A model generated the notes under the pieces. The model searched no databases. It saw only the letters and a program-made list of their open reading frames with translations, and was not told where the DNA came from. This document shows positions 2,963 to 54,329 of a stretch of 64,000 bases of DNA, piece after piece (position 1 is the stretch's first letter; every line of letters starts with the position of its first letter). The position numbers and the translations under genes are program-made. This DNA comes from Armatimonadota bacterium (GTDB lineage: Bacteria; Bacteroidota; Ignavibacteria; OLB7): positions 1,022-65,021 of the forward strand of contig JADZEY010000089.1 of NCBI GenBank assembly GCA_020850315.1. Reading direction: 5' to 3'.

Positions 2963-5056
2963 TCAGCTTCCGGCGCTGATATCAGCATGGCGTTCCTCAC
3001 CTGCGGCGGTGTTCGATCCGATTGCTGTCGGTTGCGAAGCTGGTTCGCTGGCTCGGCTTCGGGTTCCGTTGGTTGGGTTTCCGCCGGCCATGCGTGCTTG
3101 CAGCATCCGTTTTACCTCAACTGGTGCCAATTCTTCGCCCCGCATCACTTGGTCAATTTCGTCGGCATCCAGGGTCTCGCGCTCAATCAGCAACTGCGAC
3201 ATCCGGTGCAGAATATCAATGTGTTCTTTCAAGATTCTGATTGCTGTGTGCATCCCTTCGTCAATGATGCGGCGGACTTCTTGGTCAATCATCTCGGCGG
3301 TGGATTCGCTTAAATCTTTGTGGACGGCGAAATCGCGCCCCAAGAAGACTTCCCCTTCGCTGGAGGAGTAGTTCACCGGACCAAGTTTTTCGGACATTCC
3401 AAGCTCGCACACCATCTGGCGGGCCATTTGGGTGATGACTTTGATATCCCCCTGCGCCCCCGATGTGTAGTTGCCAAAGATCAGCAGTTCGGCAGCGCGC
3501 CCGCCAAGCGCCATTGCAATTCGCGCCTCGAACCACTCGCGCGAGCGGGAGTGTTGGTCGTCGTTTGGCAGGAAAGCCGTTACGCCCAGGGCCCGGCCAC
3601 GCGGGATGATGGTCACTTTATGAAGCGGGTCGCCATGTGGCATGAACTTGCCAACAATCACGTGGCCCGATTCGTGGTAGGCGGTCATTTTCTTCTCTTC
3701 CTCGCTCATCACCATTGTGCGGCGTTCAAGGCCCATCATCAGCTTATCCTTTGCCATTTCGAAATCGTACATCGTCACGCGGTCGCCATTGCGGCGTGCG
3801 GCGTAGATGGCGGCTTCGTTGCACAGGTTGGCGATGTCGGCCCCGCTGAAACCAGGGGTTGATTTTGCAAGAGCAACAAGGTCAACGTTTTCGGCAAGGG
3901 GGATATTCCGGGAGTGGACTTTCAGGATTGCCTCGCGGCCACGGCGGTCGGGGCGGTCCACCACAATTTGGCGGTCGAATCGCCCCGGGCGCAGCAATGC
4001 GGGATCAAGAACGTCGGGGCGGTTGGTGGCGGCGATAATGATGACCCCGGTGTTCTGCTCGAACCCGTCCATTTCCACTAACAGTGCGTTCAGCGTCTGC
4101 TCACGTTCGTCGTGTCCGCCCCCCAGCCCTGCGCCACGTTGGCGGCCCACGGCATCAATTTCATCAATAAAGACGATGGCCGGCGCAACCTTCTTTGCCT
4201 GCTCGAACAAATCGCGAACGCGGCTTGCGCCAACGCCCACAAACATCTCCACAAAGTCAGCACCGGAGATGGAAAGGAACTGCACGCCAGCTTCGCCGGC
4301 AACAGCGCGGGCCATCAAGGTTTTTCCGGTTCCGGGGGGGCCAAGCAGAAGAACGCCACGTGGGATTTTTCCGCCAAGCCGTTGGAACTTTGCTGGTTCG
4401 CGAAGGAACTCCACAATTTCCTGAAGTTCTTCTTTTGCTTCATCGGCCCCGGCAACATCGGCAAACATGACGCGGGGTGAGTTTTCGCTCATCGTCCGGG
4501 CGCGCGATTTTCCGAAGGAGAAGATGCCTTTGGTTCCGGTGCCTTGCATCCGGCGCATTGCCCACACGAAAATGAAGATCAGGGCAACCCAGGGGAGGAA
4601 GGAGAAGAGGATCGTCCAGAGCGTACCGCTGTCGGATTCAACGTTGTATTTAATTCCGTTCTGAACCCAGGCTTGTTCGATTTCGCGATCCACCACAATC
4701 AGCCGTGTGGTGAAGGCTTTGGTTTTGATCTTGGCTCCATCTTTCCGTTCCACTTCGGTGATTTCCTTCAGGTCGCCACGGAACTCGTAGCCGCTTAGCT
4801 CGGACCCGACCACTTCGGCGCGGTCAATTTTGCTTTCGGTAAGCAGGCGTTGGTACTCGTTGAAGTTGACGGCAACGGGCTGGCCGGGGCCATTTTTCAG
4901 GATCATGTACAGGACAAGGAATCCGACGATGATTCCCATCCACATCGTCACGGTGCGCACAACGCTGCCGACATTTCCTTCGTCGTCGCCGTTCGGTTTC
5001 CGTGATGGCCGCGGTGGCCGGTTTGCTGGCTTCCGCTGGTTGCTATCGTTGCTCAT
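2963..5056 (-). CDS. ftsH: ATP-dependent zinc metalloprotease FtsH
   Basis: The sequence has a TM region, the AAA module ([20 protein letters not shown], Walker [15 protein letters not shown]) and the HEAGH-type zinc protease motif (HESGHVIVG). The start was trimmed from 5305 to the internal Met at 5056 (MSNDSNQRK...) to remove an unsupported N-terminal extension. Confidence 0.9.
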
Positions 5057-45680: not shown

Positions 45681-47675
45681 ATGACCAAAGCCCTACGCTA
45701 TTACCTTGCCGCAGCCTTGCTTGTTGCTGCTGGCGTGTTGGTGGCAATCAACACAAAATCTTCGCCGAAACCGGCGGCGCGCACCTACACTGGTGTGCAA
45801 TCTTGCCTAACCGCCAACTGCCATGCCGGACAGTATGGCAACGGAGAAAGCTACAAAGGTGCCGCAGCGTTTATGGAAACGATGCACACCAAAATCCACC
45901 AGCGACCAAACCCACAGACCGTAATCATTGACCGCTGGTTCCGCGAAAAACGTGTGTTGAAAATCCACGACCAGGGAATCCCAACGCCTGGGCAGGATAC
46001 GCTGCTGATTGAGCTAAGCAAAGGGGAGCGTGAGGATGAATACTACATCCAGCTCCGCTTCTCGGGTGGGGGCGATTCCTTGCCAAAAATGAAGGTGGGC
46101 TACACCTACGGCGGCAACGGATGGCTGCAACGGTTTTTGGTGGAGATCAACGGAGCCTACTATGTTCCCCCGTTCCAGTATGTGCTTCCTGAATACCGTA
46201 ACCAGTCCGATACCGGTTATTGGGTTGGATTGGATATGCAAAAATGGTACGTGGCAAACGATCCAAATACTGGCAGCGCACGATTCCTCCGCTGGGAAAA
46301 GAATGAGTTCCTGAAACTCTCGTGGGATCACGAGTGTGCTGCCTGCCACGTAAACGGTTTTGGCTTGGTTGTGGATCCCAAACCAGGAACAACCGACACC
46401 GCAAATTATGCAACATGGGTTGGCGTTGCCGAAGGCGACTCCGCTCTGGCCGACCAGAACATTATGATCGGTTGCGAAAGCTGCCACGGCCCCGGCTCGG
46501 AACACGTTGCAAGCCCACGGAAGGATAACATCTTTGCCTTCTCGGTACTCCCCAAAACAAAGGAGGCAACCGACCGCAAATTGGATCTTTGCAACTACTG
46601 CCACACCCGTGGCCCCAGCAAGCCAGGCCGCGTCCATCGCTATCCGTTTGATGAAACCAACAATGAGCCGTTCATCCCAGGTGGCGAACGTCCGCTCAGC
46701 GATTTCTTTTTCGCACGCCCAACGGTCTGGGACGACGGAAAAACTTCCTACGCCCACCACCAGCATGGCGATGATTATGCGCGCTCAACGCAGTATAAAA
46801 GTCACCTGTTCATTGACGGCTGCTCCGATTGCCACTTGTCCCACTACAACAAGCCAGGGCTACCGTTCCAGTTGAAAGATGATTACTACTCATTGGAAGA
46901 TGGCGTTGGCTGCATGAGCTGCCACGGTATTCCAAAGGCGCAGGGAGGAAAGAGTGAGTTCCCAGCCGATAATTTGGGACGTGATACAGTGTTGGAAGGG
47001 AAGACCCTGAACGCACATACGTTCCACTCGCAAGGGGTAAGCCAGTGTGTGAACTGCCACTTCACGGCAACGGCAACCATCTCCTTCGACGGCAAGTTCA
47101 ACTTCACCGATCACAGCTTTAAAGTGGTCTCGCCAGAGGAGACTATTTGGTACTACCGCCGCGGAGCAACCATCGGGGTGATTAACTCCTGCGCTGCGGG
47201 CTGCCACCGCAACGGGCGCGGCGAACGGAACCGCAAGCCAGGCGACCCGCTGGCCCCAGACTTTGGAATCGTAGATCTGAACCCAGTCTTCTATAAGGAG
47301 AAAACGGATAGCCTGTTGGCTGATACGCTGTTCAAGCGTTGGAAGCAGTGGGGATGGTCAACACGGCATAATCAAACTGGAGTTGAGACATCCAACATCG
47401 CCGTCACCGGCATGGCACCAAACCCAATGGTATCCGGCAACACGCTGAACATCCAGTACAATGTGAAGTCCCGCTCGAACGTACGGGTGCAGATTGTGGA
47501 TATGCTTGGCAGGAACATCCGGTACGTTGCCAACGGCATGACCGAGCCAGGGAATCACTCAGTAGTGTGGGATGCCAACGATAACTTTGGCAAGCGGGTG
47601 GCAAGCGGAGCCTACATGGTTCGCATCACAACACCGGCTGGGACCACCAGCGAAAAAGTGATTGTGCTGCCGTAG
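45681..47675 (+). CDS. Secreted multihaem c-type cytochrome with a C-terminal Por/T9SS sorting domain
   Basis: It has a signal peptide and six canonical CXXCH motifs (CAACH, CESCH, CNYCH, CSDCH, CMSCH, CVNCH). There are also variant CX3CH (CAAGCH) and CX4CH (CLTANCH) motifs. The last ~85 aa (MAPNPMVSGNTLNIQYNVKSRSNVRVQIVDMLGRNI...SGAYMVRITTPAGTTSEKVIVLP) match the T9SS C-terminal-domain consensus. Confidence 0.75.
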   Translation: MTKALRYYLAAALLVAAGVLVAINTKSSPKPAARTYTGVQSCLTANCHAGQYGNGESYKGAAAFMETMHTKIHQRPNPQTVIIDRWFREKRVLKIHDQGIPTPGQDTLLIELSKGEREDEYYIQLRFSGGGDSLPKMKVGYTYGGNGWLQRFLVEINGAYYVPPFQYVLPEYRNQSDTGYWVGLDMQKWYVANDPNTGSARFLRWEKNEFLKLSWDHECAACHVNGFGLVVDPKPGTTDTANYATWVGVAEGDSALADQNIMIGCESCHGPGSEHVASPRKDNIFAFSVLPKTKEATDRKLDLCNYCHTRGPSKPGRVHRYPFDETNNEPFIPGGERPLSDFFFARPTVWDDGKTSYAHHQHGDDYARSTQYKSHLFIDGCSDCHLSHYNKPGLPFQLKDDYYSLEDGVGCMSCHGIPKAQGGKSEFPADNLGRDTVLEGKTLNAHTFHSQGVSQCVNCHFTATATISFDGKFNFTDHSFKVVSPEETIWYYRRGATIGVINSCAAGCHRNGRGERNRKPGDPLAPDFGIVDLNPVFYKEKTDSLLADTLFKRWKQWGWSTRHNQTGVETSNIAVTGMAPNPMVSGNTLNIQYNVKSRSNVRVQIVDMLGRNIRYVANGMTEPGNHSVVWDANDNFGKRVASGAYMVRITTPAGTTSEKVIVLP

Positions 47676-47902: not shown

Positions 47903-48592
47903 GTGTCTTCCACGCTTGCCAAAGCATTCCAACAAATGGCTGCTGTTGCGGCAAAGGATATCCGAAGCGAGCTTCGTACACGATTCGCGCTGAACTCCCT
48001 TGCAATGGTTGCTGTGGTAACGGTGGTGGTGTTGGTGTATGCCGCCCGCGAGGAGGTGAAGGTCCCCGTGGGGATTGCTTCCGGGATGCTGTGGGTGAGT
48101 ATGTTTTTTACCGCTGTGACTGGGCTTGGCCGCACGTTTGTTAGCGAGGAAGAGCGTGGCACGGTGCTGCTGCTGCGGCTAACAACCTCGGCAATCCCTG
48201 TGTACTTCGGCAAGCTGCTGGTGAATATGCTGTTTGCTGTTGGGGTGAATGCCGTGGTGGGGGTGCTGTACTTGTTCTTCTCCACCAACGTGCAGTTGGG
48301 TTCGCCGTTCGCGCTGCTGGTGGTGCTGCTTCTGTGCAGCTTCGGGTTTGCCGCATCGCTCACAATCGCTTCGGCCATTATCGCCCGCTCCTCCTCCAAA
48401 AGTGCTCTGTTCCCGGTGCTCTGTTTCCCAATTCTGCTGCCGCTGATGGTGCTGGGGATTGACCTTCTTGGCCGTTCGTTTGCTGGCGCAGCGTTGGGCG
48501 TGATGCTTGAACCATTGCTGCTGCTGCTGCTGTACTCAGTGCTGGTGATCGTCGTCAGCTACATCTTGTTCGACTTCCTCTGGAAAGAATAA
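47903..48592 (+). CDS. ccmB: Haem exporter protein B (System I cytochrome c maturation)
   Basis: It has six predicted TM helices and the CcmB-family motif FVSEEERGTVLLLRL. It begins with GTG at 47903; an alternative ATG lies at 47936. No ccmA ATPase gene is adjacent. Confidence 0.72.
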   Translation: MSSTLAKAFQQMAAVAAKDIRSELRTRFALNSLAMVAVVTVVVLVYAAREEVKVPVGIASGMLWVSMFFTAVTGLGRTFVSEEERGTVLLLRLTTSAIPVYFGKLLVNMLFAVGVNAVVGVLYLFFSTNVQLGSPFALLVVLLLCSFGFAASLTIASAIIARSSSKSALFPVLCFPILLPLMVLGIDLLGRSFAGAALGVMLEPLLLLLLYSVLVIVVSYILFDFLWKE

Positions 48593-48595
48593 TCC

Positions 48596-49696
48596 ATGAA
48601 AGCACTTCTCATTTTCGGCGGGTTTGCCTTGGGGATGTTCCTCGGCTTCTATCCCGGCGGCGTTACCAAGCCGCGCCCCGTGTGGTGGCGCACCGTTGCA
48701 ATGGTTGCCCTTGTGGTGTTGGTTTTTGTTGGGTTCGGCGTGCCAACGGGGGGAACCTTCGGCTCGGCAAAAATGATCACCATGACCAAGGACACGCCGC
48801 CACTGCTTCCGGTGATGGGGAAGGTGGTGCAGGCGCCAACCAACGGCTTGGCCGTGCTCCAAGATTCCGATGGTGATTTAGATACGTTCCGGTTGGCCGG
48901 CACGGGAATGAACCCCTCTGACATCCAGCGTGGCGACCAAGTGATCCTTGATGCCCGCTTCATTCGCGCCGAAAAACTGTTCGAAGCCGAGCGGGTTGCT
49001 TCGGTGAACCCCATCGTCACCGCGCCGCTGATCCCCGGGCTTGAGGAACGCGCCCGCAACCTCTATTTCCATGTCCCCTCGGCTTGGGTGGCGCAAATTG
49101 CGTGGTTTGTGGCGTTCGGTTTTGCGATAGCCTACCTGCGCAAACGAAAAATTGAGCATGACATCATTGCAAGCTCAGCTGCCGCGTTGGGGGGGATTTT
49201 TTGCCTGTTAGCAACCATCACCGGATCGGTGTGGGCGCGTTTTAACTGGGGGACATTTTGGACGTGGGACGATCCCCGGCTTATCTCCATCACGATTGTC
49301 CTGATTGTTTTTGGGGCCTACTTTGCGCTCCGTTCTGCAATCGAGAACCAAGACCAGCGGGCAAGGATTTCCGCAGTCTATATGATTATCCTGGTGCTTC
49401 CGGTGACGTTCTTCATGTTCGTCTATCCCCGGATTGCTGGCGGATTGCACCCCGGTTCAAAAGGGGATGTGAACTCCGGACCGGTGCTGTCGGGCCAAGC
49501 CGATTCAATGAACATTGTGATGCAGGTCATCTACGGCTTAGCAATCTTTGCGTTTATTACTCTCTACTTCTGGATGCTGAACGTTGCTGCCCGAACACGG
49601 CTGTTGGGGATGCGCCGGGAACGCCGCGCCGCCGAAATGGATAACCGAGAGAAACAACCAACATCGGCAATGGGGCCGACGGTGGTTCGTCTGTGA
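48596..49696 (+). CDS. ccmC: Haem exporter protein C with a ~125-aa N-terminal extension or insertion
   Basis: The WWD tryptophan-rich motif (NWGTFWTWDDPRL) and the LYFHVPSAW block align with CcmC. The protein is 366 aa against ~245 aa for canonical CcmC. The extra region has two TM segments and a ~70-aa soluble segment. Confidence 0.78.
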   Translation: MKALLIFGGFALGMFLGFYPGGVTKPRPVWWRTVAMVALVVLVFVGFGVPTGGTFGSAKMITMTKDTPPLLPVMGKVVQAPTNGLAVLQDSDGDLDTFRLAGTGMNPSDIQRGDQVILDARFIRAEKLFEAERVASVNPIVTAPLIPGLEERARNLYFHVPSAWVAQIAWFVAFGFAIAYLRKRKIEHDIIASSAAALGGIFCLLATITGSVWARFNWGTFWTWDDPRLISITIVLIVFGAYFALRSAIENQDQRARISAVYMIILVLPVTFFMFVYPRIAGGLHPGSKGDVNSGPVLSGQADSMNIVMQVIYGLAIFAFITLYFWMLNVAARTRLLGMRRERRAAEMDNREKQPTSAMGPTVVRL

Positions 49697-49746
49697 GCCA
49701 CGGCTTGCTGAAGCGATCAACTTCATACACTGGCCAACCAAGAACC

Positions 49747-49881
49747 ATGCAATTCCTATCCGAACACTCTATCTACGTTGTTCTTATCATCGCGCTATTG
49801 ATCCTGAGCGGGTTGCTGATCTACCTAAACCGGATTGATGCTCGGCTGCGAAAACTTGAACAAGAGGAACCACAACCATGA
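49747..49881 (+). CDS. CcmD-like small single-TM protein
   Basis: It is 44 aa (MQFLSEHSIYVVLIIALLILSGLLIYLNRIDARLRKLEQEEPQP). Its size and position between ccmC and ccmE are typical of CcmD. Its stop overlaps the ccmE start. Confidence 0.45.
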   Translation: MQFLSEHSIYVVLIIALLILSGLLIYLNRIDARLRKLEQEEPQP

Positions 49882-50261
49882 AACCAAAGTATATCATCGG
49901 GGCCGTTATCGCCCTTGCGGTGCTGGTCACAGCGTTTATCGTTGTTGAAAGCCGTGGCGTGGAGTACATGAACTTCCCACGCGCCGCCGAATCAGGAAGC
50001 AAAGTGCAGGTGGCCGGCGTTTGGGTGAAAGAGAAAGGACAGGAGTACAACGCCACCAACAACCTGTTCACGTTCACCATGCAGGATCGCGACGGCAACA
50101 CCATGCCAGTAAAGTTTGAAGGTGCCAAGCCAAATAACTTCGAAATTGCCACCGAAGTGGTCTGCACCGGAAGGGTGGAGAATGGAGAGTTTGTGGCAAC
50201 GAACATCCTAACAAAATGCCCCAGCAAGTACGAAGCAACCTCAAAAGACTTGCAGCTGTAG
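49878..50261 (+). CDS. ccmE: Cytochrome c maturation haem chaperone CcmE, Cys variant (CXXXY instead of HXXXY)
   Basis: It has a TM anchor and an OB-fold that aligns with E. coli CcmE. VQVAGVWV corresponds to VRLGGMVM, and VKFEGAKPNNF to VSYEGILPDLF. The haem-binding position reads ILTKCPSKYE where the canonical sequence is LAKHDENY. Confidence 0.68.
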   Translation: MKPKYIIGAVIALAVLVTAFIVVESRGVEYMNFPRAAESGSKVQVAGVWVKEKGQEYNATNNLFTFTMQDRDGNTMPVKFEGAKPNNFEIATEVVCTGRVENGEFVATNILTKCPSKYEATSKDLQL

Positions 50262-50316: not shown

Positions 50317-50673
50317 ATGCAACGCAGAATCCTTTTCATCTCCTTCTTTCTGTTGCTCGCAGCCGGCGTTGTGATCTACGGAGTGATGAACGTTGATGTG
50401 CCGCAAATGACCTTTGCCGAAGCGGTGAAGGTCAACGATGAATCCAAAAAAGTGATTCTGGTGGGGAAAGGAATCAACCGCCCCGCCACCGAGGATGGCG
50501 CAGTGGTCTTTTACGTGACCGATATGGACGGCACCGAAGTGAAAGTGAGCTACGATGGCGAAGCCTTCGACCACGAACGGCTGAACCACGCCTTGCAAAA
50601 GGGAGAGGTGGTGCACGTTGCCGGCCACGCCCACTCGGATCATTTCCACGGCAAAGAACTCTTCTTTAAGTGA
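50317..50673 (+). CDS. Second CcmE-like OB-fold protein with a His-rich C-terminus
   Basis: It has a TM anchor. VKVSYDGEAFDHERL...KGEVVHVAGHAHSDHFHGKELFFK aligns with the CcmE core (VDVSYEGILPDLF...GQGVVVQGEL). The C-terminus is His-rich and lacks the conserved Tyr. Confidence 0.5.
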   Translation: MQRRILFISFFLLLAAGVVIYGVMNVDVPQMTFAEAVKVNDESKKVILVGKGINRPATEDGAVVFYVTDMDGTEVKVSYDGEAFDHERLNHALQKGEVVHVAGHAHSDHFHGKELFFK

Positions 50674-50697: not shown

Positions 50698-53121
50698 ATG
50701 AATGATACAGCAGTTTTTAACGGAACACTTGGCACGATTGCCATCTGCTTTGCGCTTGCCACCGCCGCAATCGCAATGGTTGCCTATGGGCTGATGTGGA
50801 AAAACGGAGAGGAGCGATTTGGGAAGATTGGCCGCGTTGGCTTCCATGCTTCGGTGCTCAGCTTCATGTTCGCATCGGCCACGCTGATGTTCTTGATTTT
50901 CACCCACCAGTTCCAGTACACCTACGTCTGGCAGCATTCCTCCACCTTCCTTTCTCGCCCGTTGCTGATGGCCTCCTTCTATGCCGGGCAGGAGGGGAGC
51001 TTCATGCTCTGGACGTTGCTGACCTGCATCGTTGCAGTGTTTGTGATGGGATATGCCCAGCGGGTGAACTACGAAGCCCCAGTGATGACCATCTACACAC
51101 TGGTGCTGGTCTGTTTGCTGATGATTCTGGTGGTGCAATCTCCCTTCGAGACGCTGCAAGCATCGTTCCCGGGCGAGGTGCCGGCAGGCTACATTCCCCC
51201 CACCGGAAAAGGGATGAACCCGCAGCTGGAAAATCTGTGGATCACCATCCATCCCCCAATTCTTTTCATGGGCTTTGCCGCAATGTCCGTTCCGTTTGTG
51301 TTTGCCATTGCTGGGCTGTTCCGCAAGGATTACCAGCGTTGGATCACCGTCTCGCTCCCCTGGACGCTGTTTGCCTCCATGGTGCTGGGATTCGGAATTA
51401 TGCTTGGCGGTTGGTGGGCCTACGAGACGCTTGGTTGGGGCGGTTTTTGGGCGTGGGACCCGGTGGAAAATTCATCACTGATTCCGTGGCTGGTCTGTGT
51501 GGCACTGGTCCATACCATGCTGGTGCAGAAACGAACCGGAACCATGAACGGCCCTAATGGCAAGCCAATGGCAGGGGGGCTTGTTCGCACCAATTTTGTG
51601 CTGGCAATTTTTGCCTATGCACTTATTCTTTACTCCACGTTCCTTACCCGCTCCGGCGTTCTTGGCGATACCTCAGTCCACAGTTTTGTTGCGCCGGGAA
51701 TGTTCGTGTACGCAGTGCTGTTGGGGATTATTTTTCTATTTCTTGGGATTGGCATTGTTGCCCTCTCAATTCGTTGGCGGCAGCTAACGAACATCGCTGG
51801 CGAGATGAAACTGATGTCGCGCGAGAACGGTTTGGCACTGGGTTCGGCGGTGTTGGTGGGGTGTTCCATCGTTACTTTAATCGGGACAAGTTGGCCCATT
51901 ATTCGCCCCATTTTTGGTTTAGCAAAAAAACCGTTCGAAACCGGCGATTTTAATATGCTGATGCTCCCATTCGGTTTTGTGATTGTGTTCTTGAATGCCT
52001 TAACCATGGGGCTGAAGTGGAAAAACACCTCCAAAGAATCGTTTGTAAAAGCGTTATCATTATCAACAATTATTGCCGCTGTTGGAACGTTCGGGCTGAT
52101 ACTGTTAGGAATCCATGACCCAATCTACATTGCGCTCGGCTTTGGGGCAATGCTGGCATTAACCATCAACATTGAAATGGGGTGGAAAATCCTTCGCGGA
52201 AATAAAAGCTTTGTTGGCGCGTATGTTTCCCATGCTGGCGTTGCGTTGATGATGCTTGGCATTGTCTTCACCGCCCGCTACTCCGTCACCCAGCACGTCC
52301 GTTTGCCGGAAGGGGAGACCAAAGAAGCGTTCGGCTACAAGATGACCTACAAGGGGCAAGAACAGATTGAGTTAGACAAAACCGATCGCGAAAAATACGC
52401 CCATAAAATTGAGATGGTGAAGGATGGAAGCAGCTACGAAGTACAACCAATTATTTTCTGGAGCGATTTTAATAAACGGCAATCTGCATTTCTTGAGCCG
52501 GGGATATTGTACTATCCAACAAAAGACATCTACGTCTCCCCAAAAGCCATTGAAGACGATGGCGGAAATCCAACAATCGCCATGCACAAAGGGGACAAAA
52601 TTCCCCTCCCGTTTGATTCCAGCATCGCCCTCCGTTTTGTGAAATTTGAAATGGCCAACGCAGCCCAAGATGGGAAGCAATCGGCTGTTGTTGAAGTAAC
52701 CACAAAGGATAGCACATTTTCCCTGATCGCTTCACGCGTTTTGGAAGGCGGTCGCTATCTGCCGGTATTGATCCCCTCCACCGACATCTCCATCGGGTTC
52801 GGCGATCTGCGTGCCGATCGGGAAAACTTGGCAAACTCCGAAGCTGTTTTTGTCTTCAGTTCGCCATCGCATCCGCCGCCACCATCCAAGCGGGTGATTA
52901 CGGTTGATGTTTCCGTAAAACCGTTTATTTCGTTCGTTTGGGCGGGAGTGATTATCATGGTGGGGGGATTTTTCTTCTCAATTATCCGCCGCTGGAAAGA
53001 TGTGTTCCGGGGGATAAGCCCTTCAGTGCCTTCACCCCTTCAGCAGCCGCAAACCTTGTTGGCCAGTGGTGAACAATTAAGCAGCGCACGCCCGAAAGAA
53101 ATTAATGTGGGAGAAGTTTAG
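50698..53121 (+). CDS. ccmF: Cytochrome c-type biogenesis protein CcmF (haem lyase subunit)
   Basis: It has the WWD motif (WGGFWAWDPVENSSLIPWL), many TM helices and the conserved CcmF N-terminus (MNDTAVFNGTLG...). The protein is 807 aa. Confidence 0.85.
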   Translation: MNDTAVFNGTLGTIAICFALATAAIAMVAYGLMWKNGEERFGKIGRVGFHASVLSFMFASATLMFLIFTHQFQYTYVWQHSSTFLSRPLLMASFYAGQEGSFMLWTLLTCIVAVFVMGYAQRVNYEAPVMTIYTLVLVCLLMILVVQSPFETLQASFPGEVPAGYIPPTGKGMNPQLENLWITIHPPILFMGFAAMSVPFVFAIAGLFRKDYQRWITVSLPWTLFASMVLGFGIMLGGWWAYETLGWGGFWAWDPVENSSLIPWLVCVALVHTMLVQKRTGTMNGPNGKPMAGGLVRTNFVLAIFAYALILYSTFLTRSGVLGDTSVHSFVAPGMFVYAVLLGIIFLFLGIGIVALSIRWRQLTNIAGEMKLMSRENGLALGSAVLVGCSIVTLIGTSWPIIRPIFGLAKKPFETGDFNMLMLPFGFVIVFLNALTMGLKWKNTSKESFVKALSLSTIIAAVGTFGLILLGIHDPIYIALGFGAMLALTINIEMGWKILRGNKSFVGAYVSHAGVALMMLGIVFTARYSVTQHVRLPEGETKEAFGYKMTYKGQEQIELDKTDREKYAHKIEMVKDGSSYEVQPIIFWSDFNKRQSAFLEPGILYYPTKDIYVSPKAIEDDGGNPTIAMHKGDKIPLPFDSSIALRFVKFEMANAAQDGKQSAVVEVTTKDSTFSLIASRVLEGGRYLPVLIPSTDISIGFGDLRADRENLANSEAVFVFSSPSHPPPPSKRVITVDVSVKPFISFVWAGVIIMVGGFFFSIIRRWKDVFRGISPSVPSPLQQPQTLLASGEQLSSARPKEINVGEV

Positions 53122-53123
53122 AG

Positions 53124-53660
53124 ATGCCGAAAACAAAGCAACCAGCGATTCCTGAAGCTGTGCAATCGAAAGAATTGCACGAAGAGGATCGCATCCTTTC
53201 CAACGAGCAAAAACAGCAGGCGATTGCAACATTCACCAAATTCCTGACCCAGGAACATTACCGCTCAACCGAGGAGCGATTTAAGGTGTTGGAGATGGTG
53301 CTGCACCGCGTTGGGCACGGGCATTTTAATGCCGATGAGTTGTACGCAAATATGGTGATGAGTAAAATTCGCATCAGCCGCGCAACCGTCTATTCAACGC
53401 TGGAGTTGCTGGAAAAAGCTGGGATTATTATCAAGCATAATTTCAGAACTGATAGAAGCTATTATGAGGTCGGATTTGATGAACCACATCACGATCACTT
53501 GATCTGTGTGAAATGCGGGCATATCTCGGAATTTGTGAACCCGCAACTTCTTAGCATTCGCAAGCAAGTTGCCGACATGGCAGGGTTGAAGGTTGTGGAT
53601 CACTCCTTCCAGATATTTGCCGAGTGTCCCGAGCCAGGAAAATGCCCGCATAATCAATAA
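53124..53660 (+). CDS. fur: Fur-family metal or haem-responsive transcriptional regulator
   Basis: It has the Fur winged-helix region (RATVYSTLELLEKAGII), the HHDHLIC metal-site motif and CxxC...C in the C-terminal domain. It starts 2 bp after the ccmF stop. Confidence 0.78.
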   Translation: MPKTKQPAIPEAVQSKELHEEDRILSNEQKQQAIATFTKFLTQEHYRSTEERFKVLEMVLHRVGHGHFNADELYANMVMSKIRISRATVYSTLELLEKAGIIIKHNFRTDRSYYEVGFDEPHHDHLICVKCGHISEFVNPQLLSIRKQVADMAGLKVVDHSFQIFAECPEPGKCPHNQ

Positions 53661-53687: not shown

Positions 53688-54329
53688 ATGTTTAGTAAAC
53701 ACGTTTGGTACGACCGCCGCCACCAAGCTGAAGTATTTATTTCGGATGATGGGCAGATCAGTGGTGCAATTATTGCCTACAAAGGGGCCGTGTTTGTGGT
53801 GAATCCACGCCCAGAAATCATGACCGCGCTCTATCAAGAAGGAAAAATTAAACGGATACTTTCATTGAAAGGGGTGGTGCTTACCGATACCACAATGGAA
53901 TATACCCGTGGTGTCTGCTCGCTTGTTAGCTACTCGCGTGCGTTGCGGCGGAAATCACCCTTTGCCATTATCACCCGCGATAATACCGCAATCACGTCGG
54001 GATTTCTTGCCTCCTGCTGTACACAATTAGTTCCCGATGGTAGTTTCCAGGTGCAATTAACGGCATTACCGCAGCGGGAATCGTTTGTGCTGGGAGAAGG
54101 GTTAATCCGATATGAGCCGCAAGAAACTACGGAGTCCAGCGGCGGCAGCCCCTGCCTTGTGGTGGAAACCCGCGAACGCCGCATCCATTTCTACGATGAA
54201 ACCCACGTGGGGTCTTTTAATTCTAGCGAATTACCCTTGCTGCAACAGCCCCACGTTGTTATTCGCGCTGCCAACATCATGAAATCATTCCAGCCAATTG
54301 AGCAGCGGGTGTTGCAGGTGGCACGGTGA
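53688..54329 (+). CDS. Hypothetical protein, possibly a degenerate metallo-beta-lactamase-like fold
   Basis: It is 213 aa. LKGVVLTDTTMEYTRGV resembles an MBL motif-2 region with the His residues replaced. I am not confident of the family assignment. Confidence 0.4.
   Translation: MFSKHVWYDRRHQAEVFISDDGQISGAIIAYKGAVFVVNPRPEIMTALYQEGKIKRILSLKGVVLTDTTMEYTRGVCSLVSYSRALRRKSPFAIITRDNTAITSGFLASCCTQLVPDGSFQVQLTALPQRESFVLGEGLIRYEPQETTESSGGSPCLVVETRERRIHFYDETHVGSFNSSELPLLQQPHVVIRAANIMKSFQPIEQRVLQVAR

Follow-up and report, generated by a model that had tools for sequence, protein, structure and literature searches.

The haem chaperone CcmE carries a cysteine in place of its covalent haem-binding histidine in a variant of the Ccm system that was known as System I* by 2011 (Stevens et al. 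2011, PMC3601427). The largest group of System I* carriers is the delta-proteobacteria, with Chloroflexi and Firmicutes represented too, and the majority motif around the cysteine is CPSKY, found in 25 of 36 genomes (PMC3601427). A lack of CcmH and CcmG belonged to the original description of System I*, but as CcmH accompanies about one third of Cys-type systems (PMC3601427), it is no longer diagnostic. The CcmE* proteins of Desulfovibrio desulfuricans and D. vulgaris were treated by Allen et al. 2006 and Goddard et al. 2010 and are reviewed in PMC3601427. Cys120 of Methanosarcina acetivorans CcmE is needed for haem attachment and stability, and the cysteine is needed for haem attachment in D. 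desulfuricans as well (Gupta et al. 2022, PMC9084895). The same authors argued for many transfers of Ccm genes between Archaea and Bacteria and described archaeal systems in which CcmD is missing, CcmF is often split in two genes and the genes are scattered (PMC9084895).

Here, we describe a Cys-type CcmE encoded by an ATG-started open reading frame (ORF) of 127 amino acids (aa) at positions 49878–50261 (plus strand) of a 64-kb stretch of DNA, the whole of which we call the window. The protein, a putative membrane-anchored haem chaperone, belongs to the known Cys-type subfamily, which has been experimentally tested elsewhere, and does not stand out within it.

Comparison with described systems

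The window CcmE resembles Desulfovibrio CcmE* (PDB 2KCT) in that it belongs to the same family, has an OB fold and carries Cys for His, the two sequences being aligned at '...TKCP'. Similar to the Desulfovibrio system, ccmD is present (PMC9084895), and there is no ccmH or ccmG in the operon analysed here. The differences are (i) the sequence, which is about 33% identical to that of D. vulgaris CcmE over the aligned fragment, (ii) the FCB-group host, and (iii) the operon, which adds a second CcmE-like gene (ccmE2), encodes an OB domain within CcmC and does not have ccmA beside ccmB. The CXXXY motif is shared with the archaeal CcmE system (M. acetivorans, C120), and so would be a streamlined Ccm set without CcmH, judging from the 49 ORFs of the window that were scanned. 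Compared with the published description of the archaeal systems, the genes here stand close together in one operon, include a ccmD and encode CcmF in one piece.

Akin to E. coli CcmE (1SR3, 8CE8), the protein consists of a transmembrane (TM) anchor, an OB fold and a flexible tail with a tyrosine four residues past the covalent residue, and its partners include CcmC, CcmD and CcmF. In contrast to E. coli CcmE, to which it is about 28% identical, it has Cys for His and its sequence contains not a single histidine. Furthermore, CcmH and CcmG, which are essential partners in E. coli, were not found in the window: a Pfam scan of 49 ORFs of the window, including every ORF of 200 aa or more, gave no match to CcmA, CcmG/thioredoxin, CcmH or CcdA. 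The CcmE proteins of the Bacillus-group plasmids pB218 (Metabacillus) and p1 (Cytobacillus firmus) share the KCPSKY motif (LLVKCPSKYE on the plasmids), but they are 29–30% identical to the window CcmE, and their clusters differ in gene order and in having annotated CcmH and CcmA.

The ccm operon and its neighbours

The genes form a compact plus-strand operon with the order ccmB-ccmC-ccmD-ccmE-(ccmE2)-ccmF. The first gene, ccmB (47903–48592, 229 aa; PF03379, E 9.2e-11), codes for the membrane component of the ABC module CcmAB and is followed by ccmC (48596–49696, 366 aa; PF01578, E 3.9e-19; TIGR01191, E 4.7e-24) and by ccmD (49693–49881), the product of which is a small membrane protein of 62 aa (PF20077 CcmD_alt, E 1.3e-5). 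The ATG of ccmE shares 4 bp (ATGA) with the stop codon of ccmD, and as such an overlap is typical of coupled operon genes, the start of ccmE is likely to be translationally coupled to ccmD. Downstream lie ccmE2 (50317–50673, 118 aa), assigned by profile–profile comparison as a tail-less CcmE paralogue, and ccmF, the haem lyase gene (50698–53121, 807 aa; PF01578, E 3.3e-25; PF16327, E 2.6e-24; TIGR00353, E 4e-73). In the translation of ccmC, the WWD motif reads WGTFWTWDDPRL and the two His-ligand motifs read YFHVP and GGLHPG. In that of ccmF, the WWD motif reads WGGFWAWDPVEN, and the conserved histidines occur in all four of their contexts (IHPP, LVHTM, SVHSF and VSHAG); we take these histidines to be equivalent to those of the E. 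coli proteins. An Rfam scan of the whole window gave no match.

This arrangement is widely kept. When GTDB species were scanned with one genome each, a confirmed relative turned up in at least 575 of them, and the best 80 of these relatives were retained with their loci. Of these 80 loci, 71 contain ccmC and 70 contain ccmF; ccmD occupies the same position in 48, and ccmB is located upstream of ccmC in 30.

Upstream of the operon, an ORF of 664 aa (45681–47675, plus strand) encodes an octahaem cytochrome c that is a likely client of the Ccm system. A motif scan identified six CXXCH sites, one CX4CH site (C42) and one CX3CH site (C504), in agreement with the initial annotation, which had noted CX3CH and CX4CH motifs in a cytochrome beside ccmE. 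The two motifs need no special explanation, as even the E. coli Ccm system can mature such spacings. The C-terminus of the cytochrome is a type IX secretion system (T9SS) sorting domain (TIGR04183, E 4.3e-10; PF18962 Por_Secre_tail), which suggests that this multihaem protein is exported to the cell surface by the T9SS, where it could possibly serve extracellular electron transfer. Orthologues of the cytochrome precede the ccm genes in four of the related loci (L001, L006, L007 and L009), and both the CX4CH and the CX3CH sites are kept.

The T9SS domain, together with the nearest relatives, points to the window belonging to the Ignavibacteria/Kapabacteria group. The labels of the metagenome-assembled genomes (MAGs) are in conflict: a protein 100% identical to CcmE2 (IT211_10425) is filed under 'Armatimonadetes bacterium', a 97%-identical locus (L001) is labelled 'Chlorobiota bacterium', and Hyphomicrobiales or Chloroflexota is the label of several related MAGs.

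Family and fold of CcmE

The assignment of the 127-aa protein to the CcmE family, as proposed in the initial annotation together with an OB-fold match, holds in profile, sequence and structure comparisons. In an HMM search, the protein matched Pfam PF03100 with an E value of 9.1e-17 and a score of 61.7 bits, which is 2.5 times the gathering cut-off of 24.6 bits, over profile positions 15–98 of 99. The NCBIfam CcmE equivalog models match far below their cut-offs (e.g. 45 bits vs 126), as would be expected if these models, which we presume to have been built on His-type proteins, were trained on the histidine form. When the sequence was compared by phmmer with all PDB sequences, D. vulgaris CcmE (2KCT) was the top match, followed by E. 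coli CcmE (1SR3 and 8CE8_E).

An AlphaFold2 model built on an alignment of relatives has a mean pLDDT of 86.9 and comprises a helix (residues 3–24), a six-stranded β-barrel and a C-terminal tail of lower confidence. The top six Foldseek matches of this model in the PDB include 8CE8_E, 1LM0, 1J6Q, 2KCT and 1SR3, all of which are CcmE structures; they come from E. coli, in one case within the CcmABCDE complex, and from Shewanella and D. vulgaris. The architecture is that of the family, namely a single N-terminal membrane anchor (approximately residues 3–24; 49884–49949, plus strand) followed by an OB-fold β-barrel (approximately residues 37–113; 49986–50216, plus strand) and then by the C-terminal tail. 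The genetic setting is likewise that of a CcmE, with the gene placed with ccmC and ccmF in the operon ccmB-C-D-E-(E2)-F.

The residue at the haem-binding position

The phmmer alignment places 'niltkcpsky' of the window CcmE over 'evlakhdeny' of the E. coli protein. Cys114 (codon 50217–50219) thus stands opposite His130, the covalent haem-binding residue, and Tyr118 opposite the axial ligand Tyr134 of the E. coli motif H130-D-E-N-Y134. The predicted haem-binding motif C114-P-S-K-Y118 (codons 50217–50231, plus strand) conforms to the (H/C)xxxY tail of the CcmE family, and with Cys in place of the haem-binding His and an exact CPSKY sequence, it has two features of System I*. Across 28 aligned relatives, C114 and Y118 are invariant, and the only other cysteine, C96, is not conserved. 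The two central claims of the initial annotation, that a cysteine replaces the haem-binding histidine and that it forms part of a CXXXY motif, are therefore confirmed: the alignment puts a Cys and no His opposite His130, and the motif is invariant in the relatives.

Spread of the Cys-type motif

The exact sequence KCPSKY is present in all 80 of the related loci (the best 80 of at least 575 relatives). Their labels are for the most part Kapaibacterium, Ignavibacteria, Chlorobiota, Bacteroidota, Melioribacter or Kryptoniota; other automatic MAG labels are attached to about a dozen. The 120 closest homologues in a collection of 5.8 billion proteins carry CPSKY without exception, and those that are named come from Kapabacteria, Ignavibacteria and Bacteroidota MAGs. 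An exhaustive HMMER search of 1.84 billion representatives clustered at 50% identity gave 1084 matches at E<=1e-3. Among the best 150 of these, which reach down to 31% identity, about 140 contain K-C-P-x-x-Y, mostly as KCPSKY, and the others are incomplete or have a closely similar motif; not one of the 150 has His. Further named carriers are Calditrichota, Acidobacteria (Sulfomarinibacter) and Dehalococcoidia.

The same type of protein is encoded in a ccmE-ccmF-ccmH...ccmA-ccmB cluster on Bacillus-group plasmids, at 4992–5453 of L081 (Metabacillus sp. B2-18 plasmid pB218) and at 4860–5321 of L082 (Cytobacillus firmus plasmid p1). Cys-type CcmE is thus also found on large plasmids and together with an annotated CcmH.

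Judging from these genomes, Cys-type CcmE is the rule in the Ignavibacteria/Kapabacteria lineage and not an exception. The initial annotation had called the motif unusual in an FCB-group bacterium, a view that the 80 of 80 loci and the 120 of 120 homologues do not support, and had considered archaea, with a few sulfate reducers, to be its main known carriers, which is out of date, as delta-proteobacteria, Chloroflexi and Firmicutes were reported as early as 2011 (PMC3601427). The range of Cys-type CcmE is far wider and takes in Ignavibacteria/Kapabacteria, Calditrichota, Acidobacteria, Chloroflexota and Bacillota plasmids. Proteins of Ignavibacteria, Kapabacteria and Calditrichota are already named CcmE by NCBI and JGI, and our literature search found no paper discussing CcmE in Bacteroidetes, Ignavibacterium/Ignavibacteria, Melioribacter, Kapabacteria or Calditrichota (Calditrichaeota). 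This taxonomic extension therefore appears to be undescribed in print, though it is plain in the databases.

Additional CcmE-like OB domains

The ORF between ccmE and ccmF encodes a TM anchor and an OB-like domain. In profile searches, CcmE2 matched the NCBIfam model NF009727 (CcmE) alone, with an E value of 2.7e-4, and no Pfam family; searched by itself against Pfam and PDB sequences, it returned noise. When an alignment of the CcmE2 family was compared with the CcmE profile by hhalign, however, the two matched with a probability of 98.9% (E 3.2e-17, 108 columns) vs 0.9% for a reversed-profile control. An AlphaFold2 model based on a four-sequence alignment, a word-indexed search having found four close homologues, is poor (pLDDT 58.6) and has the element order β1–3/helix/β4–5; Foldseek matched it to generic OB folds and not specifically to CcmE. 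Since the matches of the model are unspecific, the link of CcmE2 to CcmE is drawn from the profile–profile comparison and the gene context, and on these grounds we regard CcmE2 as a CcmE paralogue.

The last residue of CcmE2 corresponds to K113 of CcmE, so that the protein stops one residue short of the haem-binding Cys and is without the tail. Its last hairpin displays the motif G-H-x-(H/C)...F-H, in which G-H is invariant and H/C and F-H are nearly so; in terms of residues, His104 is invariant and His106 and His111 are nearly invariant. Of 70 related loci, about 15 have a CcmE2-like ORF at this place (L001:6440–6793, L002:6385–6735, L007:6398–6757 and others), where it is annotated as a hypothetical protein.

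A second CcmE-like OB domain is contained in an extension of CcmC (residues 1–155; 48596–49060, plus strand). With a 29-sequence profile of the extension, hhalign gave a match to CcmE with a probability of 95.9% (E 6.4e-9), compared to 3.3% for the reversed-profile control and 28% for the single sequence; against the CcmE2 profile, the extension scored 85%. This CcmC and those of about 28 related loci have 130–170 extra residues before the first His motif. As the shortest CcmC versions begin with one TM helix, the OB domain would be situated in periplasmic loop 1, and the insert probably lies there, just before the first His ligand.

Neither CcmE2 nor the OB insert of CcmC is covered by a Pfam family, and a literature search for a CcmE paralogue or a CcmC fusion found nothing relevant. 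It is conceivable, and we propose it tentatively as something that may well turn out otherwise, that a Kapabacteria-like sublineage has extended a Cys-type Ccm system by these two undescribed CcmE-derived OB domains. If so, they would represent a new architectural variant of System I. The obvious hypothesis is that the extra OB domains could act as added haem-docking or hand-over modules in haem trafficking, and they might, for example, replace CcmH/CcmI at the CcmF step or stabilise the CcmC–CcmE complex. Should these side observations hold, the proteins would be natural variants in which to study the docking of CcmE on CcmC and CcmF, and would also bear on how Cys-type systems manage without CcmH.

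Descent of the locus and alternative explanations

In a neighbour-joining tree, the window CcmE is nested in a clade of Ignavibacteria, Kapabacteria, Melioribacter and Kryptoniota proteins; next outward come Calditrichota and an acidobacterium, then D. vulgaris, Dehalococcoidia and Bacillota, with E. coli as the outgroup. This is a crude distance tree of 83 columns without bootstrap or archaeal sequences, in which the D. vulgaris (53 aa) and E. coli proteins were entered as fragments. The GC content of the operon (0.53–0.58) shows no anomaly relative to the window mean of 0.556, and the order cyt-ccmBCDE-E2-F-fur-orf213 is kept in L001, L006, L007 and L009. The initial annotation had suggested a phylogeny as a test for horizontal acquisition; the crude tree, the GC content and the synteny give no sign of a recent transfer. 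An ancient transfer of Cys-type CcmE into an FCB ancestor is possible.

The published trees with their many Ccm transfers between Archaea and Bacteria (PMC9084895), as well as the Bacillus-group plasmids, which show that a Cys-type operon can be mobile, lend some plausibility to a recent acquisition of ccmE, or of the whole ccm operon, from archaea or sulfate reducers, which would make the locus a genomic oddity. We nevertheless consider such an event very unlikely, as the nearest loci (the best 80 of at least 575) belong to related genomes that share the motif and the operon order (ccmC in 71 of 80, ccmF in 70 of 80), the protein falls inside the Ignavibacteria/Kapabacteria clade while D. vulgaris CcmE is 33% identical over 52 aligned residues, the GC content is unremarkable and the flanking fur, orf213 and cytochrome genes are syntenic in relatives. 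Still less credence, close to none, can be given to a chance or decayed OB-fold ORF in place of a working CcmE. The low NCBIfam equivalog scores (45 bits vs 126, from models of the His type) would agree with decay, but it is opposed by a Pfam score 2.5 times the gathering cut-off, a motif that is invariant across hundreds of genomes, an intact operon with a coupled ccmE start, and structural matches to CcmE.

The additional OB domains raise a different question, namely whether the covalent haem carrier is the His-rich CcmE2 or the OB domain of CcmC, with the Cys-type CcmE having another role. In favour of such a role, CcmE2 is clearly homologous to CcmE, its gene lies between ccmE and ccmF, and it keeps an invariant His104 and near-invariant His106 and His111. 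Yet it is devoid of the entire tail that bears the haem-binding residue, and its histidines are not at the homologous position; most related loci have no CcmE2, and there the CPSKY-containing CcmE directly adjoins ccmF; and the cysteine is required in the Cys-type systems that have been tested. A carrier other than the Cys-type CcmE is thus very improbable.

Considering the family, the fold, the residue at the haem position, the conservation of the motif, the operon context and the taxonomic spread established here, we conclude, with a probability of roughly 0.88, that the gene encodes the haem chaperone CcmE of System I* and that its descent was most probably vertical, within the FCB group's Ignavibacteria/Kapabacteria branch.

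A proposed model of haem transfer

We propose the following model, in which covalent haem binding to Cys114 and all transfer steps are inferred from the Cys-type proteins that were tested in Desulfovibrio and Methanosarcina. CcmE would be anchored in the inner membrane by its one N-terminal helix, with the OB fold in the periplasm. Haem would be presented to it by CcmC, the WWD loop and two His ligands of which are intact, and Cys114 of the flexible C-P-S-K-Y tail would form a covalent bond with a haem vinyl group, with Tyr118 serving as an axial ligand. Holo-CcmE would then be released by CcmB and CcmD with a CcmA encoded elsewhere; as ccmA was not found among the 49 scanned ORFs of the window, the proposed release step depends on a gene outside this set. 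Finally, CcmF would take the haem and attach it to apocytochromes at their CXXCH, CX3CH and CX4CH sites, one such client being the octahaem protein encoded upstream.

A Fur-family regulator gene (53124–53660, plus strand; PF01475, E 5.2e-30) starts 3 bp past the ccmF stop codon and is followed by an ORF of 213 aa (orf213; 53688–54329, plus strand) with no Pfam match. Both hold their position after ccmF in L001, L006, L007 and L009, and this conserved placement hints that cytochrome maturation may be controlled in response to iron or haem.

E. coli CcmF has about 650 aa, and the 807-aa CcmF of the window is thus about 160 residues longer. The extra stretch is C-terminal, with a Pro/Ser-rich tail at its end, and the CcmF_C profile matches it only weakly.
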